64,000 nucleotides of DNA, from contig JAYRIP010000005.1 of the NCBI GenBank assembly GCA_041906765.1, positions 1,581 through 65,580 on the forward strand. Reading direction: 5' to 3'. Below, in pieces: positions 5,860 to 37,261 of this stretch. The stretch's first letter is position 1, and every line of letters begins with the position of its first letter. This stretch comes from Candidatus Saccharimonadales bacterium (lineage in GTDB: Bacteria; Patescibacteriota; Saccharimonadia; Saccharimonadales; JAYRRP01). Under the pieces are notes generated by a model. It ran no database searches, was not told where the DNA came from, and saw only the letters and a list, made by a program, of their open reading frames with translations. A program made the position numbers and the translations under genes.

Positions 5860-5889
5860 TTGACTGACATAGGCTTTTTATGCTATAAT
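5860..5889 (+). promoter_or_regulatory. near-consensus sigma70-type promoter (TTGACT-18 nt-TGcTATAAT) for the GGDEF gene
   Basis: TTGACT lies at 5860-5865 and an extended -10 TGCTATAAT at 5881-5889. The ATG at 5896 is only 6 nt after the -10 hexamer, implying a leaderless mRNA. Confidence 0.55.
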
Positions 5890-5895
5890 ATACAC

Positions 5896-6627
5896 ATGAA
5901 TGAAGGTTTTGCCTCCGAGCGTGATTTGCATCAGCGTGCCCGTCAAGCTTCCCGCGAACGCTTAGCGAATTCTACTAAAGATATACGAGCCTTGACTACA
6001 GCTAACGCAGGTCTAAAAGCTGCGGTGCAATATCAGCAGACAGTACTTAACTGGGTAAACGCCGAGAGAGACTATTGGCATGAACAGGCTACACACGACT
6101 CCCTTACAAATCTTCTTAACAAACGTGGTCTTGATGAGCAGTTATCCAAAAAGCTTGAGCAAGCAACCGAAGAAGATAATATTGGCCTGTTTTATATAGA
6201 CCTGACTAATTTTAAGCGTGTCAATGACGAACAAGGACATCAAATGGGTGATGCAGTTTTAGTAAGTGTTGCAAATATTTTGAAATATACTTTCCGAAAA
6301 GATGATGCGCTCTCTTATGTGGGCAGGACAGGCGGCGATGAATTCATTGCACTATGCGACCTGCAACCTCGACCAGACCGAGATAATGCACTATCGGCAG
6401 AAGAAAGGATGCAGCATATTAAAGATAGGTTAGCCACCGAGTTTAATCATTTCCGTCAAGGGATAATTGAAGGGGGGCCATCTTTGGAGTCAATGAAGTT
6501 CGACGTTTCCATCGGACAGGCAATCTGGACGCCTGGCGCAAATGCCGAAGATTTTATAGCGCTAGCCGAGCATGATATGTACGAACACAAGAACCAGCAA
6601 CACGAGGCACACGGATCATATCGCTAA
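5896..6627 (+). CDS. GGDEF-domain diguanylate cyclase with N-terminal coiled-coil
   Basis: Intact GGDEF active-site motif (GRTGGDEFIAL) and upstream D-x-LT-x-L-x-NRR-like DSLTNLLNKRG. The track ORF begins at TTG 5860, but the ATG at 5896 fits the promoter better. Confidence 0.85.
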   Translation: MNEGFASERDLHQRARQASRERLANSTKDIRALTTANAGLKAAVQYQQTVLNWVNAERDYWHEQATHDSLTNLLNKRGLDEQLSKKLEQATEEDNIGLFYIDLTNFKRVNDEQGHQMGDAVLVSVANILKYTFRKDDALSYVGRTGGDEFIALCDLQPRPDRDNALSAEERMQHIKDRLATEFNHFRQGIIEGGPSLESMKFDVSIGQAIWTPGANAEDFIALAEHDMYEHKNQQHEAHGSYR

Positions 6628-8939
6628 CCGGACTTTGGTGGCGAAGGCTTTTCGTCATTCCCATGCTTTAGGAGCAAGTAAATTGCAATGCCGATTATTG
6701 TAAGCCCCACTAATGCGAGCGCGATAAACGTTAATTCCCGCAATTGGTAGAGTACTGCCAAAATAGAAGCAACCAAACCCCACTTTATTACCAATCGTCT
6801 GCCAATAGCCATACCGAGTAATACCAAACAAATTTGTTCGGCAATAAGTAGCCAACCATAACCTCCGCCTGCACTATCCAGTGCCATTATGGCGGTAGGC
6901 AGAGTGAAGGCAACCAAGGCAAGAATAGTATAAGATTCTTCTTCGTTCTTTTGGCGACGACGGGTAGCCACATACGCATAAAAGGCAAATAATGCCGCCC
7001 ACAGGTGACTATAGACAAGTACATTGTGCACTCCCCAAAAACCGATAAGCCACTGGAAAGCTGCCATGCCCAACATGCCAGCGACATACTGTGAGGCAAT
7101 ATTTTTTCGTTCCTTTGCATACACGAATAGCAGCGCCGCGGTTAGCGCAAGATCGGCAATCATTGGTACCGTTGTGTCGCCAAATACCACAACACTGGCT
7201 GCACCGGCCGCCGCACCGAATATTGCAACCTCTTGCCACTGGGCAAAATACCGGACCTTTTTAAGTTGCACCGCAACCCAGTACATAAGAAGTGCAAGCA
7301 GACCAAAACACGAGGGGACAATCAAAGGGAAATCAACATGTGACAGACTAAGAAAAGTTATAGTCGAAACAAAAATCAGCACACCAGAAGCAATCCAAAG
7401 CTCTTTTACTCTTTCATACAGGCCCAATAGGCCTACAATGAGCGCAAAACAACTACTCATTAGTGCGGCATAAAACCGCCCTCCGTTCAGAGCCACTGCA
7501 TAGGATATTGATAAGCCAATTGCATATGTTGCCTGGATAGTTTGTATGAAAAACTTGTTACTCGATCCTATCCGTAAACACAGTGCCAAGCTTGCAGTGC
7601 CAAGATACAACAGGGCAAGTTGCGCTGCCTGCATGGCTGGATGCAACCAATACACACCAACCACAGCCGGTAGCATTGTCCAGGCGATGGCCGCAACCAT
7701 TGCAGGAAATAGCTCTGCAGTCAGCCAATACACCACTAATTGCTGAAGGACAAGTACGCCCAATGAGATGCTGAAGTAGGCAGCGTCATCAACGAAAAAC
7801 AAACAGGAGAGGAGTATTGCTGCCTGTACTACCACATATACTGCCCATTCTGTTTCTAATAATGCTGCAGGTTGTTGACGAGGTTTTGCACGCAATGCAT
7901 AAATAATGCCGGTCTGTAGCAATGCAATACCACCCAGGATTGCTCCAACCACATGCGTGTTTCTCGAAATATCCCAACAAACTAAGCTTGCAGCTGTTAT
8001 CGCGCAAACATCACCAAAAACAATGAACCACATCGTCGTTAAGGAGCCGGAAGTTTTGCGGTCAGTATAGCTAAGGACAAAGTAGTATACAGACGCCAAT
8101 GTAAAAGCAGCGCTTGCCTGCAAAAACCCAAACTGCTCAATGGACATTAATGCAAAAACTAACGAAACAGGTATTAAAATGGTTGACGCAAACTCCAGTG
8201 GTCCTTGTGACTCTCTGGGCACTTTTCCAAACCGCGGCAAAAGCATAAACAAAGTGCCGCAAAGTGACATCACAATTCCGAAATAATAGACTGGTAACTC
8301 TACTATCGCCACGCCTGACATAAACAGCGACAAAAAAGCAGCCAACAAAAAGTAGACACTAAACGTATGTCGGGTACGTAGTAGTGCGTGGACGTATATA
8401 CCCATTGCAACAGCCGAGGTCATACACCACACGGCGGCCGCGTGAGTACGTCCAAACATGAATACATATGACGCAAAGCCAACAAACGGGATGAGTATCA
8501 TGCCGATCGCAATAAATGAAAGTCCAGCGGGCTTCAACCGGTGAATGTGACGGAATAAATACATGCCAAGGACATAAAACCCAGTAGCTACTAGCGCAGT
8601 TAGTACTGTCCTGGTCGTACCACCAAGGCCTGCAAATGCGATAAACAGACCAACTGCAGATGTAAACAGAAAGGCCCCCAAATAGAGAAGGATGGTTGCA
8701 TTATCCACAGGTTTTGGCGGTGGGGGAGGCGCTATGCCTGCAACAACGGCAGTATTAGCTGATATTGGACTTGCAGCTGTTACCGCAGCATTAGAGGCAG
8801 CCTGGTCTTGTCCGCCGCTGCCATATAGCATTGTGCGCAAATTCGCGTTTTCATCGTATAGTTCACGAAGGCGCTTTTTGGAGCTGTGACTCCCTACATA
8901 AGCCCCAAGTAAAAAAATTAGAATAACAAGCAAAAACAT
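6624..8939 (-). CDS. large polytopic membrane protein (about 20 TM helices), DUF2339-like architecture
   Basis: 771 aa: N-terminal TM, short coiled segment, Pro-rich linker (PPPPPKP), then many TM helices. The family assignment is from memory of the architecture only. Confidence 0.5.
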   Translation of the reverse strand: MFLLVILIFLLGAYVGSHSSKKRLRELYDENANLRTMLYGSGGQDQAASNAAVTAASPISANTAVVAGIAPPPPPKPVDNATILLYLGAFLFTSAVGLFIAFAGLGGTTRTVLTALVATGFYVLGMYLFRHIHRLKPAGLSFIAIGMILIPFVGFASYVFMFGRTHAAAVWCMTSAVAMGIYVHALLRTRHTFSVYFLLAAFLSLFMSGVAIVELPVYYFGIVMSLCGTLFMLLPRFGKVPRESQGPLEFASTILIPVSLVFALMSIEQFGFLQASAAFTLASVYYFVLSYTDRKTSGSLTTMWFIVFGDVCAITAASLVCWDISRNTHVVGAILGGIALLQTGIIYALRAKPRQQPAALLETEWAVYVVVQAAILLSCLFFVDDAAYFSISLGVLVLQQLVVYWLTAELFPAMVAAIAWTMLPAVVGVYWLHPAMQAAQLALLYLGTASLALCLRIGSSNKFFIQTIQATYAIGLSISYAVALNGGRFYAALMSSCFALIVGLLGLYERVKELWIASGVLIFVSTITFLSLSHVDFPLIVPSCFGLLALLMYWVAVQLKKVRYFAQWQEVAIFGAAAGAASVVVFGDTTVPMIADLALTAALLFVYAKERKNIASQYVAGMLGMAAFQWLIGFWGVHNVLVYSHLWAALFAFYAYVATRRRQKNEEESYTILALVAFTLPTAIMALDSAGGGYGWLLIAEQICLVLLGMAIGRRLVIKWGLVASILAVLYQLRELTFIALALVGLTIIGIAIYLLLKHGNDEKPSPPKSG

Positions 8940-9015
8940 ATTTGTTCTCTGTTGGAACTATACAGCCGCCAGACAAAACGCACAAGCTTACTTCTAGGTA
9001 ATAAGGGTTTATCCC

Positions 9016-10113
9016 TTAGTGATCGTTGTGTAATTCTTCTAAAAGCTCACGTTGTTTTCTGCTCAGCTTTGTCGGGGTATCTACTAATACGGTGACAATG
9101 TGAGCTCCGCGACTCCCGCCTCGCATGTGTGGTACACCGTGATGGGACAATTTAAAATCCGTTCCACTTTGGGTGCCAGCTGGAATCTTCATAGTCACTG
9201 GACCATCCACAGTTTCTACTTCTATATGAGTGCCCAAGGCTGCGCCTACCATATCGACATGTTCCTCACTTAAAATAAGATCGCCCTCCCTGGTAAAACG
9301 TTTGTGAGGTTTTACCCGAATATTCACGTACATGTCTCCTTTCGGTCCATTTGCGACCGCCTCGCCATGTTCCCTGAGCCGAATAGTTGCACCGTCATCA
9401 ATGCCAGCCGGAATCTTTAACCCAATTGTTTGAGACTTCATCTTTGTGCCCTTACCATGACACACGGTACAGGCTTTTTCAGGAATTTTTCCTCGGCCAT
9501 GACACTTAGGACAAATGGTGGCCTGCTGTATATTGCCAAATATCGTACGTGTTACATTGACTACCTGCCCACTCCCCTTACAGGTGTCACATGTTTTAAG
9601 TTCGTACCCTGGCTCAACAGTCGTGCCTTTACAATGTTCGCAAGTATCTTCTAGGTTGAGTTTCACATCAACTTCCGTACCAAAAACTGCTTGCTCAAAT
9701 GTAAGTTCTACGCTTGTTTCGACGTCTCGCCCTCGAGCTGAGTGAGAGCGTGCCCGCGCATTATTGCCATTAAATCCACCGCCAAAAAAACTTCCTAAAA
9801 TATCGCCAAGCCCGAGGTCACCAAAGTCAAAGTGGATCTCTTGCCCTTGCGCACCTCCAAAACCAGCAAATGGATTACCATCGCTCGCCGCACTACTGCC
9901 AATGCCAGCATGCCCAAATTGATCGTAACGTTTCCGTTTGGATTCATCCTTCAGTACTTCATACGCTTCATTGACCTCTTTGAACTTCGCTTCGTCTCCA
10001 CCCTCTTTATCGGGATGGTACTGCACAGCTAAACGCCGAAACGCCTTTTTAATCTCATCAGCGCTCGCATTTTTATTTACGCCCAGTACTTCGTAGTAAT
10101 CGCGTTTAGCCAT
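9016..10113 (-). CDS. dnaJ: molecular chaperone DnaJ
   Basis: J-domain with HPD (YHPDKE), a G/F-rich region and four CxxCxGxG zinc-finger repeats. Confidence 0.95.
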
Positions 10114-10426
10114 TGATTATTTCCTTTTCTAGCCACTTTGTAGCATCTTTGGAAATCTTTAGTATAGGAATTGCTTCTAAGACAAAAGTGTCGTAGCTAT
10201 GAAGTTCAGTAATTTCGGCCTCAATTTTACCAACTAAATCCACTCTGGACTCCATAACTAAAAGTATTTCCTTGTCATTTTCTATCTTACCCTTCCACCA
10301 ATAGTTGGCTACAATTGGAAGCTGTTTCGCGCAGGCTACTAGACGTTTCTTAAGTAACTGGGAAGTGATTGTATCGGCCTCAGTTTCATCCTTACATGTA
10401 AGCCAAAGCTGACAAAAATCAGCCAT
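10106..10426 (-). CDS. cutA: CutA1 divalent-cation tolerance protein family
   Basis: 106 aa with the CutA-like pattern (LVACA...Y.WKG.I....E..L..K). Its start overlaps the dnaK stop by 1 nt and its stop overlaps the dnaJ start by 8 nt. Confidence 0.75.
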
Positions 10427-12351
10427 TATTTTTCCTTATCGTCTACAACTTCACCTTCTACCGGCTCGTTTTTATCTGTGTCACTACCTTCCGTGTCTTT
10501 GTTCGTATCTTCTGGTGACTTTGCTTCATTTTCTTTGTTCGCTTGCTCGTACATTTTGGCACCAATAGGCATAATCTTATCATTCAAGGTCTTTGTAGCA
10601 CTCTCAAGGGTAGCCTTATCTGATTTCTCGTCTTTCGCAACCTTCTTTGCCTCGTCAATTGCCTCGTTCAAGGTTTTCATATCCTCATCGGCCAGTTTGT
10701 CCTTGTGATCATTCTTCATTTTCTCAGCGTTATAAATAGTACTGTCTAAGATATTGCGAACTTCGACAGCTTCACGCTTACTCTTGTCTTCTTCGGCATG
10801 GGCTTCAGCTTCCTTGGCCATTTTTTCGACTTCTGACTTGTCCAAATTACCACTGTTTTGAATGGTTATACTTTGTTCCTTACCCGAGCCTTTGTCTTTG
10901 GCGGTAACATTAAGGATGCCGTTGGCATCGATGTTAAATGTCACTTCGATTTGCGGAACGCCACGCGGCGCTGGTGGAATGCCGTCCAATACAAACCGTC
11001 CCAGGCTTTTATTGTCAGCTACCATTTCGCGCTCACCCTGCACCACATGGATCTCAACCTGCGGCTGGTTGTCGGCAGCTGTACTAAAGACTTCGCTTTT
11101 GCTTGTGGGGATTGTCGTGTTGCGTTCAATTAATTTTGTGGCGACACCACCGAGTGTTTCAATGCCTAAGCTTAACGGAGTTACATCAAGTAACAACACA
11201 TCTTTGACGTCACCTTGCAGCACGCCACCTTGAATGGCTGCACCGATTGCAACTACCTCGTCAGGGTTGACCCCTTTGAGTGGTTCTTTGCCAAAAATTT
11301 GTTTCACCTTTTTCTGAACCACTGGCATACGAGTCATGCCGCCAACCAATACAATTGCATCGATATCAGCTGCTTTTAATCCTGCATCGTTCAGCGCCTT
11401 CTCGCACGGTCCAGCTGTCTTTTCGATAAGATCGGCTACTAATTGTTCTAGTTTTGCACGAGTGAGCTTGTGTTCAAAATGCTTCGGCCCTTCTGCATCG
11501 GCAGTTAGGAATGGCAAATTAATATCAACTTCATTGGTTGTACTCAGTTCAATTTTGGCCTTTTCAGCTTCATCGCGTAATCGCTGCATAGCTGCTTTGT
11601 CGTTCTTGACGTCAATACCTTGTTCCTTTTTGAACTCATCAGCAAAGTAATTCACCAGCACACGATCAAAGTCAGCACCGCCTAAGTGAGTATCACCATT
11701 CGTGCTCTTCACTTCAAAGACACCATCACCAAGTTCAAGAATTGAAACATCGAACGTCCCGCCGCCAAGGTCAAAGACAGCGATCTTTTCATCTTTCTTT
11801 TCTGCTTTGTCTAATCCGTAAGCCAGGGCTGCAGCCGTAGGCTCGTTGATAATACGCTTCACTTCCAGTCCGGCAATCTTGCCTGCATCTTTTGTTGCCT
11901 GGCGCTGACTATCGTCAAAATACGCGGGGACGGTAATTACTGCTTCGGTGACAGGGCTACCCAAAAAACTCTCTGCGTCGCTTTTAAGCTTGCCGAGTAT
12001 CATGGCGCTGATTTCTTCGGAGCTGTATTCTTTGTCACCCATTTTTACCTTGACACCACTGCCACTTTTGACGATTTCGTATCCCATCAGACTAAGGTCC
12101 CGTTGGACTTCTTTGTCTTCCCAGCGGCGGCCGATAAGACGCTTTACTTCATAGACTGTATTTTTTGGATTCGTAACCTGTTGTCGGCGAGCTACCTGTC
12201 CGACTAAACGCTCGCCATTCTTATTAATAGCCACGACACTTGGGGTAGTCCGAGCGCCCTCGCTGTTAGCAATAATTTCTGGCTTTCCTGACTGCATTGC
12301 AGCCATCGCGCTGTTTGTTGTTCCTAAATCGATTCCGATAATTTTTCCCAT
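10426..12351 (-). CDS. dnaK: molecular chaperone DnaK (Hsp70)
   Basis: Readable canonical motifs: [27 protein letters not shown]. Confidence 0.98.
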
Positions 12352-12353
12352 GT

Positions 12354-12866
12354 TTACATCTCCTCTTTATTCTTTTCGTTAATTATTCTCTGCATCTTTA
12401 CTCTTACCATTGCATGGCGGATTACTTCATCACCCAACTGATACCCGGCTTGGAGTTCTTCACTGACTACCTCCGTATCACCATCCTCATTGTCATCCAT
12501 ACTGACTGCCTCGTGCAGGCGCGGATCAAAGACCTTACCCACCGTCTCTATCCGCGTCACACCAATGTCGCTTAGTGTCTTGCCGAATTGCTTAACCACC
12601 CCCTCCACTCCTTTTACATACCCATTACCTTCCAACTCCTTTGGCACATGTGTGAGAGCACGCTCTAAATTGTCGATAACTGGCAGAAGTTCCCGTACTA
12701 CGTTTGCTTTTACAAGGGTTTTAAGATTGGCAAACTGCTCATCATGACGGCGACGCATATTGTTCGCATCAGCCCGTTCACGCTGTAATGCTTCAGTTAG
12801 CTCATCAATTTGTTGTTGCAGCTTTGCTAATTTATCAGCTGATTTGGGTTTCGCAGCTTTAGGCAT
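12354..12866 (-). CDS. grpE: nucleotide exchange factor GrpE
   Basis: Coiled-coil N-terminus and GrpE C-terminal beta domain (FDPRLHEAV...GY.L.D.VIRHAMV). It sits between hrcA and dnaK. Confidence 0.9.
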
Positions 12867-13578
12867 ATAGCACCTCCTCTAACGCCTCGCCTGCCCTACG
12901 AACGAGCAACATCACATCACGGTAACTCTGTCTCGTTGGACCTAACACTCCTATATAGCTTCGGTCTGAGTAAGGACTATGGAACTTACTCACAATCAGA
13001 GAGCAGCCTGCACCTGCCCCAACTGGATTCTCGCTGCCAATATACACATTTAAAGGTTGATTCGGCGCAGCTTCACGCAGCCAAGGTTCCAAGTTATCGA
13101 GCAAACTAGCCACTTCACGTACCTGTTGGGGATGCATGAATTCCGGCTGTCCAAAAAGATTAGAAAGCCCGCTCATGTACAGTTGGTTGCCTATCGTAGC
13201 CAACCCCAAATTATGCGTTAATTCCACAAGTGTATCCACCGCATTACGAATGGTGCGCTCAGGTAGTCCGGCTCTTTCAACCCGGGCGGTTAAGGCCCGC
13301 TCAGCACGTCGCTCTGCCGGTGTCTCATCAAGATTTTCCGGTAAATTATTCACATAATACCGATACCCCTTGTCTGTGGGCACACGGCCCGCACTGGTAT
13401 GCGGCTGCTTAATCAGACCTTGGCGTTCTAGTTCGGCCATTTCGGCCCGCACGGTGGCAGAAGAAACCCCAAAAGCTTTCGCCAGCAAACTTGAGCCCAC
13501 CGGGCTCGCAACTTCGGCATATTGCTCAACGATTGCCTGTAATATCTTCTGCTGTCTTTCTGACAAATGTTCATTCAT
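12859..13578 (-). CDS. hrcA: heat-inducible transcription repressor HrcA (compact, about 239 aa)
   Basis: N-terminal wHTH (LSERQQKILQAIVEQY...PVGS..L) and the HrcA C-terminal signature GVLGPTRQSYRDVM. ATG 13578 is preferred over the track TTG at 13590. It overlaps grpE by 8 nt. Confidence 0.85.
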   Translation of the reverse strand: MNEHLSERQQKILQAIVEQYAEVASPVGSSLLAKAFGVSSATVRAEMAELERQGLIKQPHTSAGRVPTDKGYRYYVNNLPENLDETPAERRAERALTARVERAGLPERTIRNAVDTLVELTHNLGLATIGNQLYMSGLSNLFGQPEFMHPQQVREVASLLDNLEPWLREAAPNQPLNVYIGSENPVGAGAGCSLIVSKFHSPYSDRSYIGVLGPTRQSYRDVMLLVRRAGEALEEVLYA

Positions 13579-20713: not shown

Positions 20714-21589
20714 TCACTCAAGCACTAAACTGTTATGAGTAATTTTCAAATGGTGCTGTCCGTCAATATCCATAGATTTACCTGGAGCATACGTTTTTGC
20801 CGCTGACACCAGACGTTCAATCATTGGTCGATTTAGTCCGCCTACACTTAGATTACGTAGCCAACCTGCCATTACTTCACGAGCAACAGCATGCGGCAGC
20901 ATAATGAATGTATGGCGGTCCAACACTCTAATACCCGGCTGAAGATGGAGATAGTGGGTAATCTGTTCATCAATCATGCCGTTTGTTTTGGTAATTGCAT
21001 CAACGTGTCGTGTCAGCTCTTTTTTTGCCTCATCATTAAACATGGGCAATATGACATGACGCACATAATTACGTAAATACCGCGTATCAGTATTTGTCGG
21101 ATCTTCTCTCCACACGAGTCCTTGTATTTTTGCGTAATCCACTAACTGTTTTTTGGTGATACGTAATAGTGGACGCATGACACTTGCCCGAGACTGCATT
21201 GGGCTCAATCCTTTACGACCGGTTCCTCGGATGAGATTAAGGACAACTGTCTCCAGCACATCATCATAATGATGTGCAGTTAGTATATGCGAGGCACCCG
21301 TTGCACGACGAACTGTTTGCAAGAACTCATAACGTGCTTGGCGAGCCACTGCCTCACTTGTTCCCAGACCTAATTTGCCTTCATGATACACAAAAGGCAG
21401 CCCTATATTTCGAACAGTTTCTTGCACAAACAAGCGGTCTTTCTTTGAGTCAGAACGCATGCCATGATCAAAATGTGCAACAGTAAGTTTCAGTTTTGAG
21501 TCATTACGCAGCATATGCAATAAAGCCATCGAGTCTACTCCACCCGATACTGCCACCACATGCCTGCCTGGTGGAACCGTAAAGTTCAT
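20714..21589 (-). CDS. tilS: tRNA(Ile)-lysidine synthase TilS (short form)
   Basis: PP-loop SGGVDS at the N-terminus and the classic position immediately upstream of ftsH. Confidence 0.85.
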   Translation of the reverse strand: MNFTVPPGRHVVAVSGGVDSMALLHMLRNDSKLKLTVAHFDHGMRSDSKKDRLFVQETVRNIGLPFVYHEGKLGLGTSEAVARQARYEFLQTVRRATGASHILTAHHYDDVLETVVLNLIRGTGRKGLSPMQSRASVMRPLLRITKKQLVDYAKIQGLVWREDPTNTDTRYLRNYVRHVILPMFNDEAKKELTRHVDAITKTNGMIDEQITHYLHLQPGIRVLDRHTFIMLPHAVAREVMAGWLRNLSVGGLNRPMIERLVSAAKTYAPGKSMDIDGQHHLKITHNSLVLE

Positions 21590-21606
21590 CTTATAATTTT
21601 AACAGT

Positions 21607-22116
21607 ATGCGTAAGCTGTATTTTATTCGACACGGACAGAGCACCTTAAATGCCCTTGGATTATTCTCGGGGCATTCTGATCCACCCCTGACACCACTCG
21701 GACGTGATCAAGCGAAGAAAGCCGGACAGGAAGCTATAGCTCTTAATATTGATCTTATTGTTAGCTCGCCACTTTCCCGCGCTTTAACTACGGCACAGAT
21801 TATTGCGACTGAAGTCAGGTATCCTCACGAAAAAATTATCACGCATGAGGCACTTATGGAAAGAAACTTTGGAACACTCGAGAAACAACCTTACCGGCCA
21901 CAAATGCACGTAAAACATACCGAGTTTGAAGCAGAGACTGATGATCTGTTAATAGAACGTGCAAAAGCAGTACATAAGTGGCTGCAAGAACAACCGGCAG
22001 AGATTATTTTAGTAGTCGGCCATGGAGGAATTGGCCGAGCGTTACGATATACCGTTAAACCAGAGGCTGATTTTTATGAGCCGCTCGCCAACGCGTCCCT
22101 CGTAAGGTGGCTCTAA
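21607..22116 (+). CDS. histidine phosphatase family protein (phosphoglycerate mutase-like)
   Basis: RHG motif (LYFIRHGQS) and a C-terminal GHGG catalytic-His region. Confidence 0.8.
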   Translation: MRKLYFIRHGQSTLNALGLFSGHSDPPLTPLGRDQAKKAGQEAIALNIDLIVSSPLSRALTTAQIIATEVRYPHEKIITHEALMERNFGTLEKQPYRPQMHVKHTEFEAETDDLLIERAKAVHKWLQEQPAEIILVVGHGGIGRALRYTVKPEADFYEPLANASLVRWL

Positions 22117-22163
22117 ATAATATATCTTCATTATTTTGACAAATTAGTGTAAAACATTAATTG

Positions 22164-22769
22164 ATGAGTGAAGAGTTCCCTTCTAACTATTTAATGGAAG
22201 AATTGGCTTGCCCTAGTGAACTTCCGGATATCACATACACGAAGCAAGTAGCCAGTTACGTAATAGGAATGCACGAAGAACTTCCACAGATAACTTCCAC
22301 TACCGAAGTTAAACTTGCTCAAAACGCACTACGACTAATCACATCCGACCCCAACAATGTCCATGACCAAAGAGGTGTATCGAGAATCGAGAAAAACAAA
22401 ACCATGAAAACCCGTTTCCAGGAAGTGAATGAAAATATCACCAATGCTGGTAGTCCAGTTTACCGAAGACTCAAGTTTGACCTAACCAAGCATCGTATTA
22501 GCACACAACCATTAGACGAATCGTGGAGAGAGTCTGCTGCCTGTAAGGGAATGGATGTAGAGATCTTCTATGATTCCGATAATAGAGAGAAAATAAAAGA
22601 AGCACTAAAGGCATGCAAAGCCTGTGAGGTACGCGCGGAGTGTCGCAAGTATGCAGAAGATGCAGATATAGAATGGGGTATTTGGGCCGGGGATTTAAAG
22701 GTACCAGATGGTAAGATACCAAAAAACTTTACTCGAATTAAAGAAGAAGTAGAAAAAGATCAAGAGTAA
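22164..22769 (+). CDS. WhiB-like (Wbl) Fe-S transcription factor domain protein with long N-terminal extension
   Basis: The C-terminal 70 aa carry the full Wbl signature: C-x25-C-x2-C-x5-C (AACKG...ACKACEVRAEC) followed by the turn motif WGIWAG and a basic tail. About 125 aa of unmatched N-terminal sequence precede it. Confidence 0.8.
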   Translation: MSEEFPSNYLMEELACPSELPDITYTKQVASYVIGMHEELPQITSTTEVKLAQNALRLITSDPNNVHDQRGVSRIEKNKTMKTRFQEVNENITNAGSPVYRRLKFDLTKHRISTQPLDESWRESAACKGMDVEIFYDSDNREKIKEALKACKACEVRAECRKYAEDADIEWGIWAGDLKVPDGKIPKNFTRIKEEVEKDQE

Positions 22770-22941: not shown

Positions 22942-23520
22942 TTAAGCGGCAGAACTTGAACCGCGGTGTCTTAGTGACAATAAGGTCATGCTTCCGTCAA
23001 AAAACATGAAGTAAATTGGGAAGATTATTAGCTTAGCAGGTTGGCTGCCACTGGCCATGACACTAAGAATGCTTGCAATAAAGAATAATGACCAGAAACC
23101 TGTACTCTCGCTACTAGGCTTTTCCCAAACACGTTTATATGTTGGTACAGCACCTACGAAGTGAGCGAATAGGCTTATAGCTACGCTTACAAGCGGAGCT
23201 TTAAACGTAATCCATACAAGTCCACTAATTACCAGAATTGCTAAGCAAATATACTCTAATTTACCTATATCCCTAGTGCCTTTCCAGAAGCTTGTTAGAC
23301 AAATTGTTGCGTTTCCAAGTAAGAATATGCCCGCCAACAACATCGAAGGCTTTGTACTATTGCTGACAACCACACCTGCGAAACTTATAACAGCAAGGAG
23401 TAACCAAACAACTCTACTAAAAACACTCGGAGCATACTTGCCGTTTAGCATTTCTTTCAAACCGACCAAGTAAGAAGCACAACCAAATAGCACGATGAGA
23501 ATATAAAGAGTCTTTTCCAT
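22942..23520 (-). CDS. integral membrane protein (about 6 TM), hypothetical
   Basis: 192-aa hydrophobic ORF with no recognisable motif. Confidence 0.5.
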   Translation of the reverse strand: MEKTLYILIVLFGCASYLVGLKEMLNGKYAPSVFSRVVWLLLAVISFAGVVVSNSTKPSMLLAGIFLLGNATICLTSFWKGTRDIGKLEYICLAILVISGLVWITFKAPLVSVAISLFAHFVGAVPTYKRVWEKPSSESTGFWSLFFIASILSVMASGSQPAKLIIFPIYFMFFDGSMTLLSLRHRGSSSAA

Positions 23521-23665
23521 TAGCTATATCATAATCATAACAAAAGAGTTGTTCTGTTCTGCGAGAGGATTCGCAGAACAGGAGAGGAAGAAACATGCAG
23601 AACCAACCTAAAAAGGCGCCACTGGATTGCGCGTTTTTATAGGTTGGTAGTAATGATTTCTGACG

Positions 23666-23686
23666 TGGTAGCAGCGGCAGGGATTG
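23666..23686 (-). repeat. 21-nt exact copy of the 3' end (T-loop to CCA) of the tRNA at 23858-23934; att-like distal repeat
   Basis: TGGTAGCAGCGGCAGGGATTG occurs identically at 23666-23686 and 23858-23878. The flanking bases differ on both sides. Confidence 0.8.
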
Positions 23687-23820
23687 CCCACGTTCCGCGG
23701 GCCCGAAACTTCACTATTGAAAACAAGTTTTCATCGGAAGGTTTCCTTGCGGAATGCCACAGGCATTCCTCACCTGGCGACCTCTACTCGGTCGCAGAAC
23801 CAGTCCTACTTATGAAAACA

Positions 23821-23857
23821 GGGCCCAGTGACAACTATAAAAGTTGTCTTCGGGCCC
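23821..23857 (-). terminator. intrinsic terminator-like hairpin immediately 3' of the tRNA
   Basis: On the minus strand: GGGCCC-GAA-GACAACT-TTTAT-AGTTGTC-ACT-GGGCCC followed by TGTTTTC. Confidence 0.6.
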
Positions 23858-23934
23858 TGGTAGCAGCGGCAGGGATTGAACCTGCGACCTCGGGCTTATG
23901 AGTCCCGCGCTCTAACCGACTGAGCTACGCTGCC
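23858..23934 (-). tRNA. tRNA with CAU anticodon, elongator type (Ile2/lysidine-type favoured over Met), CCA encoded
   Basis: Manual cloverleaf: GGCAGCG-TA-GCTC-AGTCGGTTA-GAGC-G-CGGGA-CTCATAA-GCCCG-AGGTC-GCAGG-TTCAATC-CCTGC-CGCTGCT-ACCA. Y11:R24 marks an elongator. The GAGCGC...CUCAUAAG...GAGGUC context resembles E. coli tRNA-Ile2. Confidence 0.9.
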
Positions 23935-24489
23935 TTAAGGTTGAATCGCATCGGAGATGCCATCAGGTTGGGAATATAGCATACTTCGGACTGCGGTTTC
24001 CAGTGCAGGCAGTTTAGCTGCGCTCTGCACTACCGCTGCAGCCATTTCATGATATGCAGGCTTCGTTGGAGGTTCGATGCGCCGATCTGCATGAAGACGA
24101 CGGTGGCTGGCTTCACATAGTATCTGCTTATTCTCGGGGAGCTCCCTATAGGCAACTTCTACGGGTTGACGATAGTCATTTCTCGGCCAGTATTCATGAT
24201 GCTCGGTTAAACATTCTGGCATTCGTTCGCAGCCATCACAACCGATGTTCCTACTTTCGCCCTGCTCCGCCACCAGTTTTTTTGCAACCGGTGTTACGCG
24301 TATTGTTCCTTTTTTCATTAAAAAACGGCCTAAATGTGAGGCCGCGTCTTTGGTGGGGAGTCTTCCTTCTTCATTGAGCCGCAAAAGGCGCCGCGCAAGC
24401 CCGACAAATTCTTCATGTCGGCGCTGAAATGGCGGTCCACCTTGTTTACGAGCTCTTTCCATACTTCCCCCGTAACTTGTGGTCGTCAT
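23935..24489 (-). CDS. HNH endonuclease domain protein
   Basis: The HNH pattern is readable: CDGC...EHHEYWPRNDY...N..ILCEASHRRLH. The stop codon directly abuts the tRNA 5' nucleotide. The gene looks GC-richer than its surroundings by eye. Confidence 0.6.
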   Translation of the reverse strand: MTTTSYGGSMERARKQGGPPFQRRHEEFVGLARRLLRLNEEGRLPTKDAASHLGRFLMKKGTIRVTPVAKKLVAEQGESRNIGCDGCERMPECLTEHHEYWPRNDYRQPVEVAYRELPENKQILCEASHRRLHADRRIEPPTKPAYHEMAAAVVQSAAKLPALETAVRSMLYSQPDGISDAIQP

Positions 24490-24979
24490 AGGAGTGCTGC
24501 TCAGTGGCGCACACCCCTGTTAATAGTGTAAATTATTATGCTCTATACTTCAATCACAATAGAACACAGGCCAAGTCGGCCTGTGTCACTTTATCTGCAG
24601 TTTATCTTTATGCTAGTTATTTATTAGCTCATCAAACTGAGATATTTCTTTATTGGTAGTAGGTATGAACTCATATGCCATACCCGATAACCCGTGCATA
24701 GTTTTTTATTCCTTTTTATAAACTTATTGTTTGTTTTGCTGATCAACTAAAACATGTATTATTATACATACTTTTTTGTTATTGTCAATAATATTTTGAA
24801 TTAATGTTGTGTAATTGTGCTGTGAATGTTTTAATAAGTCTGCAGGTTCTTATTGGTTCTTAACTCACTAGATGCGGCAAACGTATTTTTTCAAAAAGTA
24901 TCGTTCTTTAGTCCGGATAGGCAGAGAGAGACAGATAAGTCGGGTCGTACTTGCTAGGTAAAAGTAAAGGAAACGATAC

Positions 24980-25282
24980 ATGTACAAACTATTCGTAGGC
25001 GGTTTGCCGTTCAGCACTACTGATGAGGAACTCTCTGATGTATTTGCACCCCATGGGACGGTAAGCTCTGCGGTCGTTATCAAAGACCGTGAGACAGGCC
25101 GCAGCAAAGGGTTTGGCTTTGTAGAGTTCGAGAATGATGAAGAAGGCAAAGCCGCTGAAAAGGCATTGCATAATTCTGATCTCGGTGGCCGTACCATTAC
25201 GGTAAACGAAGCCCGTCCCCGGGAAGATCGTCCGCGTCGCGATGCAGACGGCGGCGGATCTTTCCGTCAACGCAGCTGGTAA
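24980..25282 (+). CDS. RNA-binding protein with RRM domain
   Basis: RNP-2 (LFVGGL) and RNP-1 (KGFGFVEF) motifs with an Arg/Asp/Gly-rich tail. Confidence 0.9.
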   Translation: MYKLFVGGLPFSTTDEELSDVFAPHGTVSSAVVIKDRETGRSKGFGFVEFENDEEGKAAEKALHNSDLGGRTITVNEARPREDRPRRDADGGGSFRQRSW

Positions 25283-25348: not shown

Positions 25349-25741
25349 CTATTTCTGTCGTTTGTCCGTGGCTCGTGCTCCCCGCTTACCGTGCCGTTCA
25401 CGCACAACTCTTTTCTCTAATTTCTTATCACTTTTTTCTTCGGCAGCAATTAAGTCTGTCTCGCGGATACCCATTTTCTTCATCATAGCGTCAAGTTTAA
25501 TATTGATAGCCAGGTTGTCGCGGTTCTGTGTGTTTTGGATAATAAACACCATCAGGAAGGTAATGATGGTGGTACTGGTGTTAATAATCAGCTGCCAAGT
25601 GTCAGAAAATCCTAATAAGGGACCGCTTAACACCCACAACACCAACACCCCTAGAGCACTCACAAAAATCCAGGGGCGACCAAGAATTGATGAAGTGCGA
25701 GTAGTAAACCGGTTAAATATATCTTCATGCTTTTCACTCAT
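25349..25741 (-). CDS. low-affinity iron permease family protein (Fet4-like small bacterial form)
   Basis: The family-typical stretch LGRPWIF...GPLLGFSDTWQLIINTSTTIITFLMVFIIQNTQNRD is readable. Confidence 0.75.
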   Translation of the reverse strand: MSEKHEDIFNRFTTRTSSILGRPWIFVSALGVLVLWVLSGPLLGFSDTWQLIINTSTTIITFLMVFIIQNTQNRDNLAINIKLDAMMKKMGIRETDLIAAEEKSDKKLEKRVVRERHGKRGARATDKRQK

Positions 25742-30274: not shown

Positions 30275-30988
30275 CTAATTTGTAAGGATCCAGCGCACCG
30301 TAAGATCTTTTAGTCTCTTATATTCAGCTTCGTCATATTGCATATTCGCAACGCAGTAGCGCTTCCCTTGCATGTTGGTACAGAACATACTATCCTGCAT
30401 ATCGCCAGTATCGTGCATAAAGAAACAATTGGTAACATTTCCAGACCAAGAAACGTTAAAGCAGTTCGTGCAGTTTCCACTATCCTCAAGCCGCATACAA
30501 AAAGTTGAATCGCCCGACCTTTGGCTGGCAGCTATAAATTCACAACCATTGAGGCCATCAGAAAATAATATGTTCTTGCTCTTACGGATATCTTGGGATC
30601 TATATACGTTTTCCGAGTAATAAACGTTGTCAGATTCAGATACGTTTACACTCTCTTTATAACGTTCAGTTGTCGTGAGATTCATTTCATTCCATGCCGC
30701 TAAAATGTCTTCCATAGAATGCAAAGCTCGTGCGGGCCGGAGATTATCGGTTTTTGGACTCGCACCGGCCAATTCAAGCCCTCGAGCATTTTGTAGCTTC
30801 ACAAATCGAGTCGGGTTAGTCGACTGGGCCCAAGTAGTAGACCCATCTGTAATATCCGTAACAGGTTGAGGCAAGCGAATATCAAAAGTAAACTTCTGCA
30901 TAAACTGTTCGAGACTCAATGGGTTTTGGTATCCAAAGACCTGGCCCACAATCTTATCCAGTAATTGTTGAGCTTCACTTTTTTTCAT
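30275..30988 (-). CDS. hypothetical protein with C-terminal Cys/Asn/Ser-rich short repeats (beta-helix-like?)
   Basis: 237 aa with no signal peptide. The C-terminal half shows a periodic x-N-[VIC]-x-x-S pattern and 8 Cys. Its start overlaps the upstream ATPase stop (ATGA). Confidence 0.55.
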   Translation of the reverse strand: MKKSEAQQLLDKIVGQVFGYQNPLSLEQFMQKFTFDIRLPQPVTDITDGSTTWAQSTNPTRFVKLQNARGLELAGASPKTDNLRPARALHSMEDILAAWNEMNLTTTERYKESVNVSESDNVYYSENVYRSQDIRKSKNILFSDGLNGCEFIAASQRSGDSTFCMRLEDSGNCTNCFNVSWSGNVTNCFFMHDTGDMQDSMFCTNMQGKRYCVANMQYDEAEYKRLKDLTVRWILTN

Positions 30989-32985
30989 TGTTCACCCTTC
31001 TTTTTATTAACTTTAGCCCTACTTGATGAATGCTGGGCCAGCAAATCACGCACACTACCAAAAATGGATGATGGAGCTTGATAAGGTTCCTGCGGATGTT
31101 CCGTTTCTTCTTGAAGAATTTTATCCATCAATTCCTTGCTAAAGGCAATCTGTCGCTTCGGCTTTTCCGCAATTTCTACGAATTTCTCGGGCAACACCTG
31201 TTCTGTACGTTTCAAATCTTCAGCTTTATGCATCTTTATCACGGGTGCATCCACCGTTCTTGCCTTAAGCGCCGGTGCAACTTGACCGTTCGACATTAAC
31301 CGTACGAGGCATTCCCTTGGATGCAGTTCCGTCATCATTTTAATTTTTATATCAGATTCTTTCGTGCCTTTAGCATGTTCGGCTTCAATGAGTTCACTGG
31401 GTAATTCAATATTTAAATTACCCTCAAGACCGCGCGCATCTTCTTCCGAGACTTTAAAAGTGTAGTAATTAAATACATTGGAGAATATTGCATCACGCAA
31501 ATCCTTTTCAACCTGTCCAAAATACTGCTGAGTAAGAATAACGGTTAAATTAAACTTGCGGGCCTCTGCCAATATTTGGGCAAGTGCAGGATTTTGGACC
31601 ACGGATACTTCGTCAATAATTAAAATGACTTTCTGACCAAATGCGCGGGCTTGCGCGAGTAGAAAGATCTGCTGGATAAGCAATCCGGCAACCGTCCTCA
31701 CGACCTTGTCGCCCATGCTGACTTTATTGAGAGAAAATACTGTCAGGAAATTTTCTTGGATAGTCCTGGCTAAAGAGATTTCACTTTCGCCGACGAGTGA
31801 GGGCTGCAACTGCATTTCATCAACCATAGAAACTAAAGGCAAAATTGTTTCATTATAATATTGGGTTCTTAACTCGTTATAATCTGCCCCAAAAAACTTA
31901 GTAACATTTGGAGGAACATAACCTTCCGTGTGTGCAACGACTTGGTTTCGATACTCAACATCTGCTAAGAATCGCTTGAGATTTTCCAGCGACATAGCCT
32001 GAGCTGTCATTAATGTAAATAAGCTGAAACGTAATAGTCTATCAAGCCGGGGGTTAAACTGATCCGCAAGAATCGACTTAAATAATGTAGCAGTCAGTTC
32101 CGTGGCTGATGTTAAATCCGTTCCAGCGCCAGGGAATAGTTCCGCGCTGTCTTGCTTATCGAACGTAATAACCTTCGTATCAGCTATATGGGTAAGATCG
32201 TCAGAAATCGATGCATGAGGGTCAATCACAATAACTCTATAGTTCATCCTTAATGCAGTTCTACTGAGACGATCTATAAAAAGACTTATGAATTTAGATT
32301 TACCACTGCCGCTCGCGCCGATAATAAAGGAGTGCTTATCGAATTCATAATTAGTCAGGCTCAAATAGCGATCCTCAGAAAAATATGGAAAGGCGTCTAT
32401 TTGGAATAAAGCGTCTGCTTTTTCGCTTGTAAGCATATGTAAGGATTTCTCTATATTCAGGTATTTTGGTGTGGTCTTCTTTAGGTAACGGGTATTGGCC
32501 GCAAAATTAATTGATAAGAGTTTTGCAGGAAATATAGTGAGCGTTTTAGTTGCTTTCGACCATCTGTCACCGGCACTTTTGAGATAAAAAGTGCTCCGTA
32601 CAATAGACTTCTCAATATTCACCGTTCTTACTCTAAAAACAACGTATTGCAAGTCTTTCGATTTTTTAACGGCAAGTTTTTCTTTTAGATCCAGCAAATT
32701 TCCCCCGGTGACGAATTGAAAAAATCTTTCCTTTGAATTGGCTTGCGGTGGTTCCAATTCTTTTTCATGGACAGGCCGCAGCACAATTCCTTCGAGATTA
32801 TTGGAAATCGAACTCAGATCTTTGGTAGAAGTGATAAAAAAGCGAAGTACATTATCTGTGCACTTAAATGTAATTTCAAACTTACCAAAAGTGCCTAAGT
32901 AGGAAAGGAGCGATTTATATAACTTTGTCCATTGCTCGGCATTTAGCTCGTCTGTAAGGATATAGATTTCAAAGTGTTGTTTCAT
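30985..32985 (-). CDS. FtsK/HerA-superfamily P-loop ATPase (DUF87 / TraD-VirD4-like core) with novel about 220-aa N-terminal region
   Basis: Walker A FIIGASGSGKSKF, VIVIDPHA, Walker B VILIIDEVS, and RKFNLTVILTQQ plus NYYTFKV resembling HerA/VirB4/T4CP C-terminal motifs. No TM helices are evident. Confidence 0.7.
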   Translation of the reverse strand: MKQHFEIYILTDELNAEQWTKLYKSLLSYLGTFGKFEITFKCTDNVLRFFITSTKDLSSISNNLEGIVLRPVHEKELEPPQANSKERFFQFVTGGNLLDLKEKLAVKKSKDLQYVVFRVRTVNIEKSIVRSTFYLKSAGDRWSKATKTLTIFPAKLLSINFAANTRYLKKTTPKYLNIEKSLHMLTSEKADALFQIDAFPYFSEDRYLSLTNYEFDKHSFIIGASGSGKSKFISLFIDRLSRTALRMNYRVIVIDPHASISDDLTHIADTKVITFDKQDSAELFPGAGTDLTSATELTATLFKSILADQFNPRLDRLLRFSLFTLMTAQAMSLENLKRFLADVEYRNQVVAHTEGYVPPNVTKFFGADYNELRTQYYNETILPLVSMVDEMQLQPSLVGESEISLARTIQENFLTVFSLNKVSMGDKVVRTVAGLLIQQIFLLAQARAFGQKVILIIDEVSVVQNPALAQILAEARKFNLTVILTQQYFGQVEKDLRDAIFSNVFNYYTFKVSEEDARGLEGNLNIELPSELIEAEHAKGTKESDIKIKMMTELHPRECLVRLMSNGQVAPALKARTVDAPVIKMHKAEDLKRTEQVLPEKFVEIAEKPKRQIAFSKELMDKILQEETEHPQEPYQAPSSIFGSVRDLLAQHSSSRAKVNKKKGEQ

Positions 32986-33924: not shown

Positions 33925-33999
33925 TGGTAGCGGGGGGAGGACTCGAACCTCCGACCTTGTGGTTATGAGCCACACGAGCTGCCGCTGCTCTACCCCGCG
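33925..33999 (-). tRNA. initiator tRNA-fMet (CAU), CCA encoded
   Basis: CGCGGGG-TA-GAGC-AGCGGCA-GCTC-G-TGTGG-CTCATAA-CCACA-AGGTC-GGAGG-TTCGAGT-CCTCC-CCCCGCT-ACCA. It shows the initiator hallmarks of an unpaired 1:72 (C x U) and an A11:U24 pair. The acceptor is nearly identical to E. coli tRNA-fMet. Confidence 0.9.
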
Positions 34000-37185: not shown

Positions 37186-37261
37186 GGGGCAGTAGCTCAC
37201 CGGTTAGAGCAGGCGGCTCATAACCGCTTGGTAGTTGGTTCGATTCCAACCTGCCCCACCA
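37186..37261 (+). tRNA. elongator tRNA-Met (CAU), CCA encoded
   Basis: GGGGCAG-TA-GCTC-ACCGGTTA-GAGC-A-GGCGG-CTCATAA-CCGCT-TGGTA-GTTGG-TTCGATT-CCAAC-CTGCCCC-ACCA. It has a fully paired acceptor and Y11:R24. Confidence 0.9.

Follow-up and report, generated by a model that had tools for sequence, protein, structure and literature searches.

How does a WhiB-like (Wbl) protein come to be encoded by a bacterium of the candidate phyla radiation (CPR), and what could it do there? The question is raised by a 64,000-nucleotide stretch of a Candidatus Saccharimonadales contig (JAYRIP010000005.1 of assembly GCA_041906765.1; this whole stretch is hereafter the window), in which a gene that we call wbl encodes a protein of 201 residues, the long Wbl. 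The Wbl family has been called exclusive to Actinobacteria and actinobacteriophages in a 2026 paper (PMC13013590), and full-text searches pairing WhiB with Saccharibacteria, Patescibacteria, or related names yielded no report of a Wbl there, the co-mentions concerning, to judge by titles and abstracts, the actinobacterial host or unrelated topics. Long Wbl belongs to this family, closest to WhiB/WhiB2, as judged by its sequence, ligands, aromatic patch, and fold, and it is best read as an older gain in a narrow Saccharimonadales clade, neither a recent capture nor a CPR-wide heirloom. A second Wbl was searched for in the 64-kb window and none was found, wbl being the only copy.

A Pfam-A search assigns residues 121-176 of long Wbl to PF02467 (WhiB; InterPro IPR034768) with a score of 54.1 bits (E = 2.4e-14), the curated gathering threshold being 23.6, and 11 PHROG families of the WhiB type match the same stretch. 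The initial annotation of this locus, made from the sequence alone, had placed a Wbl domain at the C-terminus, which is borne out by the profile score and by the predicted fold match to solved Wbls. Its cysteine spacing has to be corrected, since the first interval, given as x25, is x23 and the ligand pattern reads C127-x23-C151-x2-C154-x5-C160. The four cysteines themselves were upheld on re-inspection, being invariant in 4/4 clade members (long Wbl and the orthologues described below) and in a 25-sequence alignment; a fifth one, C16, is not conserved in the relatives. Alignment to Mycobacterium tuberculosis WhiB1 pairs W121, F135, Y136, and W174 with the aromatic patch residues W3, F17, F18, and W60, of which W121, F135, and W174 are invariant in 4/4 clade members and position 136 is either Tyr or Phe. 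The WGIWAG turn pointed out initially is present at residues 171-176 (GIWAG at 172-176), but it is not of the family's G[V/I]WGG type at its fourth position, which is always Ala in the clade instead of Gly; G172 and W174 are kept, and the relatives read GIWAE (P0002, the 83% orthologue) or GVWAG (P0003 and P0167). The full-length AlphaFold2 (AF2) model, built with the 25-sequence alignment, has a mean predicted local distance difference test score (pLDDT) of 77, with 80-91 over the Wbl part, and still forms the turn with strands 172-174 and 177-179, ahead of a tail helix (residues 187-199, pLDDT ~80-85). Foldseek analysis of this model against the PDB reports WhiB1, WhiB3, WhiB7, and WhiB with probability 1.00 and WhiB6 with probability 0.80 (TMt 0.57-0.73), the solved Wbl structures, in which four helices surround the cluster pocket, being its sole significant fold matches. 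By sequence, the nearest solved relative is Streptomyces venezuelae WhiB (8dy7_H, E = 1.2e-9, residues 119-176), followed by M. tuberculosis WhiB1, WhiB3, WhiB4, and WhiB7 (E from 1e-4 to 0.06). The AT-hook RGRP that marks the WhiB7 subfamily is absent from long Wbl, and the WhiB7 match is weak (E = 0.05). The C-terminal 60 residues carry both the sequence signature and the fold of a Wbl.

Comparison with the characterized members defines what is shared and what is particular. Long Wbl has the same four cysteines, aromatic patch, 'ACEVR.EC' core, and fold as S. venezuelae WhiB (PDB 8DY7/8DY9, chain H), with a first cysteine spacing of x23 as against x22. The actinobacterial WhiB, which works with WhiA, has 87 residues; its N-terminus is short, its turn reads GIWGG, and its tail is basic, whereas long Wbl has a novel 118-residue N-terminal domain, a GIWAG turn, an acidic tail, and a Saccharimonadales origin, and no whiA was found in the window. 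With M. tuberculosis WhiB1 (6ONO), WhiB3, WhiB4, WhiB6, and WhiB7 it has in common the fold, the AP1-4 equivalents, and the presumed [4Fe-4S] pocket; unlike WhiB7 it is devoid of an AT-hook, unlike WhiB3 of an Arg-rich motif, and unlike the sigma-A-bound Wbls of a basic C-terminal tail. Such a tail, a putative non-specific DNA contact, is not essential: activation can do without it, and in some WhiB3 members this region is devoid of basic residues (PMC10245118). The domain matches actinophage Wbls (PHROG 472, 1333, and 12112; Mycobacterium phage LilSpotty gp59) as well as cellular ones, the PHROG 472 match having E = 3.9e-16, but none of the phage proteins covers the N-terminal domain, their hosts are all Actinobacteria, and IMG/VR returned no full-length relative. 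Other metagenomic Wbls (P0037, 191 residues; P0012, 272; P0016, 161; P0064, 391) have the same layout of an N-terminal extension and a C-terminal Wbl domain, and at least 100 residues precede the domain in 20/190 collected metagenomic matches; none of these extensions matches that of long Wbl, apart from a tentative resemblance in P0064. Four features set long Wbl apart from its family: Ala in place of Gly in the turn, an acidic tail, a length of two domains, and, foremost, its taxon. The family is described as single-domain proteins of ~75-140 residues from Actinobacteria and actinophages, and a 201-residue, two-domain protein from Saccharimonadales lies outside these bounds, which are a descriptive limit and not a structural criterion.

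The extension preceding the Wbl domain measures ~118-126 residues depending on where the domain start is set, a range that includes the 125 residues first given. It is unrelated to known families in that its first 118-120 residues return no match in Pfam, NCBIfam, or PHROG, and Foldseek reports no PDB fold match for the isolated domain (best E 3.3). The earlier statement that this region has no recognisable motif holds for family matches, but not for the orthologues: alignments of the 4 members reveal invariant residues in the motifs QVxxYV, PQ[IV]T, AQxxL, and RFxx[VM]NxxI. In the full-length AF2 model and in that of the isolated domain alike, the three predicted helices have pLDDT values of 82-92, and residues 1-19 and 108-119 are disordered, the first ~20 residues being low in conservation and in model quality. 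A hidden Markov model (HMM) of the N-terminal domain does not match any of 16 other extended Wbls. Between the window and the loci of the 83% orthologue (L004 and L011), the ratio of nonsynonymous to synonymous substitution rates (dN/dS) is 0.28-0.30 over the whole ORF (open reading frame), 0.32-0.35 over the Wbl domain, and 0.27-0.31 over residues 1-118, and because of this last value the extension can be regarded as translated and constrained. The N-terminal ~118 residues are a conserved, selected three-helix domain that is restricted to a small clade. The reading frame is uninterrupted, and a protein identical to long Wbl (P0001) is encoded on 3 further contigs. A TTG lies one codon 5' of the ATG, and the relatives do not have it; M11 aligns with the start of P0003, and the true start might be M11 rather than the ATG at 22164, which leaves the picture unchanged. 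The 47-nucleotide leader contains TTGACA at 22136-22141 and is identical at 44/47 positions in L004 and L011, although the synonymous divergence of the flanking coding DNA is ~0.3. No Shine-Dalgarno sequence was found in it (22117-22163) before the ATG, a consensus scan reported no complete sigma-70 hexamer pair, and a promoter and terminator scan around wbl returned nothing usable. Judged from its sequence conservation, this spacer could serve as a promoter, operator, or leader.

Regarding function, we consider it probable, on the strength of sequence and predicted fold, that long Wbl is a [4Fe-4S] protein that associates with region 4 of the cell's own sigma-70-type factor and adjusts transcription to the condition of its cluster. 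The aromatic patch (W3, F17, F18, and W60 in WhiB1) mediates binding to sigma-A region 4, is retained in 98.7% of 995 representative Wbls, and is the means by which all seven M. tuberculosis Wbls bind this region (PMC13013590). In long Wbl, the cluster would be held by the four cysteines of the Wbl domain, the protein would dock on region 4, and damage to the cluster by O2, nitric oxide, or redox stress would change transcription, as with WhiB1, WhiB2, WhiB3, and WhiB7. With an acidic tail in place of a basic one, and with an extra domain conserved, it would probably be the new N-terminal domain that confers promoter or partner specificity. By analogy, the role of this domain would resemble the dependence of WhiB on WhiA, or of WhiB7 on its AT-hook.

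The distribution of long Wbl is narrow. Its orthologues are P0002/P0152 (83% identity), P0003 (37%), and P0167 (28%). The 83% orthologue is found in Candidatus Saccharimonadales bacterium isolate XM1_ASGE3bin.32 (JAYRRP010000003.1), the sole GTDB genome with a relative in a scan of one genome per species, and this contig encodes FtsH, MurJ, and LepA in the order seen in the window, at 89-95% identity; the Saccharibacteria-type genome suspected initially is confirmed by this orthologue and by the fully syntenic FtsH and MurJ (90-95% identical), which place the window in Saccharimonadales, class Saccharimonadia. Among 1.84 billion representatives, an exhaustive HMMER search returned 3,860 Wbl-domain matches but only 2 full-length relatives, P0002 and P0003; profile searches added P0167, and a scan of the JGI metagenomes yielded no more. 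In the window, L004, L010, and L012, wbl adjoins tilS, from which it is transcribed away, with or without a histidine-phosphatase gene in between, so that it occupies the same slot in four lineages. Across these four lineages, FtsH is 88-95% identical, LepA 80-89%, and TilS 50-67%, and the Wbls of the two more remote lineages retain 28-37% identity, FtsH being still 88% identical where the Wbl is at 28%. The outgroup was collected with a TilS profile over the JGI metagenomes and comprises 80 loci with a tilS-ftsH(-murJ) arrangement, whose FtsH is 68-82% identical to that of the window and which extend at least 1 kb upstream of tilS in 59 cases and at least 3.5 kb in 37. HMM analysis identifies a Wbl in 0/80 of these loci, and the Wbl-type cysteine motif has no credible case among them, the lone regular-expression match (L102) being devoid of HMM support. 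Three of them span the full interval to the RRM gene and tRNA-Met and carry different genes in it, among them NUDIX/HD and CNNM genes. Since none of the 80 more distant loci carries a Wbl, wbl in the tilS slot is confined to a narrow clade, and an ancient CPR-wide Wbl clade, the outcome that the initial annotation had set against its own proposal, is not what these loci show. A possible outlier is P0064 (391 residues; L024 9943-11118 and L025 9862-11037), which bears the motif PxIxxTxxLKxAxNAL...RYxxxNxxI just upstream of its Wbl domain; its resemblance to the N-terminal domain is weak (hhalign E 0.01, with the HMM score reached by 3/3000 shuffles). Its gene and a neighbouring CNNM/CBS gene are transcribed divergently; the latter shares 64-71% identity with the CNNM genes that adjoin tilS in L065, L091, L092, and L101, and the P0064 contigs are probably a second Saccharimonadales lineage with a long Wbl at another locus. 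Given P0064, the two-domain architecture may, tentatively, be older and patchily kept within Saccharimonadales.

These data bear on the suggestion, made initially, that wbl was acquired from an actinobacterial host or an actinophage. A recent horizontal capture, with wbl a newcomer in an integration hotspot, would fit the overwhelmingly actinobacterial and phage provenance of Wbl domains in annotated collections (103 matches in 50,697 phage records, with hosts that are all actinobacterial, the best tblastn match to a phage Wbl having 46.6% identity over 58 residues; 59 matches in 72,556 plasmids, all actinobacterial), as well as the position of the gene at the edge of a conserved block, beside a variable slot and a tRNA, and the slot without wbl in the 80 more distant relatives. 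We nevertheless hold it to be very improbable, and largely refuted, as four lineages have wbl in the same place with a divergence down to 28-37% identity, and as tRNA-Met, the 184-residue ORF, and the RRM gene on its right are a conserved core and not an island. No close donor emerged from the phage, plasmid, and IMG/VR collections or from the 1.84 billion representatives, the matches reaching at most ~50% over ~60 residues and none having the N-terminal domain; IMG/VR returned 4 matches, at 31-36% identity and limited to the Wbl domain. The guanine-cytosine (GC) content of wbl is 41.6% (z -1.5), and 37.1% at third codon positions (GC3; z -1.1), both within the spread of the 61 window genes and below the genome mean, so that the comparison of composition called for at the outset found a native gene; as these values are native and on the low side, opposite to the trace that a high-GC donor would leave, a recent donor of this kind is unlikely. 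A proxy based on amino-acid composition for sorting the matches into Actinobacteria and CPR by GC was dropped, since low-GC Actinobacteria confound it. The phylogeny, also called for, took the form of a neighbour-joining tree and a distance ranking of 180 Wbl domains over 67 columns; it placed the nearest outsiders at a distance of 0.47-0.55 and the family's own distant members at 0.44-0.55, and it named no donor clade. In the older gain that we favor, the Wbl module would have entered or been assembled in an ancestor at or before the base of the narrow clade, and vertical descent with fast divergence would have followed. The donor of the module is no longer identifiable, and its ultimate source is plausibly actinobacterial or actinophage, considering where the family is concentrated. 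Lastly, the two-domain protein might be an annotation artefact, a short classical Wbl being made from an internal start (e.g. M81 or M130) and the extension being an untranslated leader, a notion that the missing Shine-Dalgarno sequence and the badly conserved, badly modelled first ~20 residues could encourage. It is hardly credible, because four lineages, at 28-83% identity, keep the frame open over a comparable length and have invariant residues all along positions 19-118, because dN/dS is no higher in the N-terminal part than in the Wbl domain, and because the helices are confidently predicted, which leaves room at most for a start shift to M11.

As to what the protein does, a role of the Wbl fold independent of sigma, as a redox or Fe-S enzyme, a chaperone, a thiol reductase, or a sensor for the N-terminal domain, with no transcription factor involved, is suggested by the altered turn (GIWAG/GIWAE) and acidic tail and by an N-terminal domain without DNA-binding signature; moreover, a sigma factor encoded next to two extended Wbls (L019, described below) is devoid of RHPSRS, and the pairing of Wbl and sigma may differ outside Actinobacteria. 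The four sigma-contact aromatic residues have however been kept under selection, nearly the whole family retains this patch, and the seven M. tuberculosis proteins all use it; we regard a sigma-independent role as unlikely. A more remote proposal is that long Wbl is delivered into an actinobacterial host, where it would bind region 4 of the host sigma-A, the N-terminal domain serving for export or targeting. Saccharibacteria are epibionts of Actinobacteria, on which the cultivated members of this CPR lineage live, and actinophage Wbls hijack host transcription; a fast-diverging sigma-binding Fe-S protein could reprogramme sigma-A-dependent transcription of the host in the same manner. The intact aromatic patch, the fast divergence between close relatives (28% identity for the Wbl versus 88% for FtsH), the lineage-specific N-terminal domain without fold match, and a VirB4/TrwB-like ATPase gene 8 kb away are in line with such an effector, whereas the 201 residues contain neither a signal peptide nor a hydrophobic segment (export signals for such systems are not known), an Fe-S protein that is labile to oxygen would be ill suited to export, and a dN/dS of ~0.3 indicates purifying and not diversifying selection; delivery into the host, and the host-directed reprogramming that goes with it, are accordingly given very little credence. 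In a milder alternative to the effector, Saccharimonadales may own a patchy 'long Wbl' subfamily that acts on a non-actinobacterial sigma. The regulator acting on the cell's own sigma-70, of older origin, is the reading that we retain, and several points weigh against it. Instead of GIWGG, the turn reads GIWAG (GIWAE in the 83% orthologue), and the tail that follows it, initially described as basic like that of classical Wbls, has 6 K/R versus 7 D/E and a net charge of -1. The model of the N-terminal domain rests on 4 sequences and has a pLDDT of 68.5 when folded alone. No cognate sigma gene was found in the window. The tree of the 60-residue domain points to no origin, and absence from the tilS slot of other lineages is not genome-wide absence.

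The coordinates of wbl and its surroundings are collected in Table 1. The left flank is the end of the block dnaK-grpE-hrcA-gmk-lepA-murJ-ftsH-tilS, whose synteny is common to L001-L012. To the right, the hotspot of tRNA, att-like, and HNH elements proposed initially is mostly conserved core (tRNA-Met, the 184-residue ORF, and the RRM gene); what remains of it is one slot that does vary, between wbl and tRNA-Met, occupied by a RidA gene in L004 and by an M23 peptidase gene in L010. The 184-residue ORF had been taken for an HNH element; it is 80% identical in L004 and 53% in L010, and its conservation beside this tRNA-Met and this RRM gene marks it as part of the clade's core and not as a mobile element.

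Table 1. Features of the wbl locus, in window coordinates
Feature	Position	Strand	Description
Long Wbl ORF	22164-22769	+	Complete, ATG start, 201 aa + stop; two-domain (ORF list and sequence)
47-nt intergenic leader	22117-22163	+	Candidate promoter/operator; 44/47 identical to L004/L011
N-terminal domain core	22224-22448	+	aa 21-95; three predicted helices (21-34, 46-61, 79-95); conserved motifs
Wbl domain, putative [4Fe-4S]	22524-22691	+	aa 121-176; PF02467
Predicted Cys ligands	C127 22542-22544; C151 22614-22616; C154 22623-22625; C160 22641-22643	+	From sequence
C-terminal tail	22692-22766	+	aa 177-201; net acidic; predicted helix 187-199
Left flank	20714-22116		tilS 20714-21589 (-), histidine-phosphatase gene 21607-22116 (+); Pfam
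Right flank	22942-25282		One variable slot, then conserved tRNA-Met, 184-aa ORF, and RRM gene
Variable slot	22942-23520	-	192-aa multi-pass membrane ORF; no family match
tRNA-Met	23858-23934	-	Recurs in L004 and L010
184-aa Cys/His-rich ORF	23935-24489	-	CDGCERMPEC...HH...C...H..LH; no Pfam or PHROG match
RRM protein gene	24980-25282	+	Recurs in L004 and L010

Pfam analysis of the ~50 window ORFs identifies no sigma-70, WhiA, or Suf gene. In L004, a 226-residue sigma-70_r2/GerE-like gene (12637-13317, minus strand) directly follows the RRM gene, a position taken in the window by a gene for a low-affinity iron permease (25349-25741). Three tRNA genes with a CAT anticodon lie within the 64 kb (23858-23934, 33925-33999, and 37186-37261), one of which probably yields the tRNA-Ile2 on which the TilS encoded beside wbl acts. 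The VirB4/TrwB-like ATPase gene (DUF87 + TrwB_AAD_bind) is located at 30985-32985 on the minus strand and bears on any proposal that the epibiont delivers protein or DNA; a GGDEF diguanylate cyclase gene is located at 5860-6627 on the plus strand. An rpoD regular expression applied to all fetched loci matched solely in L019 and in none of the Saccharimonadales loci. L019 is a 1.26-Mb contig of 44.6% GC on which dnaG, rpoD (345 residues), two genes, two extended Wbl genes, and polA follow one another (7029-10819); the tandem Wbls have 167 residues, with a WhiB2-like core, and 272 residues (P0012). The L019 sigma factor ends in ...LAKVRKHKDARTLHEY (RKHKDA), where primary sigma factors have LRKLRHPSRS, and since its end differs, the His-Pro pair contacted by all studied Wbls is shifted or absent there. 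Among the other metagenomic Wbls, P0004 (L107 8001-8534), P0010, and P0024 have two complete Wbl domains in tandem on one polypeptide, the gene of P0004 adjoining a type I restriction-modification operon. On L018, a contig of 35.6% GC, a 153-residue extended Wbl with a GIWAG turn is encoded at 726-1187, directly upstream of rplJ-rplL.

The claim made here covers a small clade, and database curators may already be able to see occurrences of PF02467 beyond Actinobacteria. Within this compass, a CPR lineage has a selected, stably inherited Wbl joined to an N-terminal domain without fold match, and a long-Wbl subfamily of Saccharimonadales would, if true, overturn the stated exclusivity of the Wbl family. 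The mechanism that couples Wbl and sigma can probably work outside Actinobacteria, and long Wbl provides a concrete candidate for genes exchanged in ancient times between epibionts and their hosts or the phages of these hosts. It also gives rare access to the transcriptional and redox control of organisms in which almost no regulators are understood.

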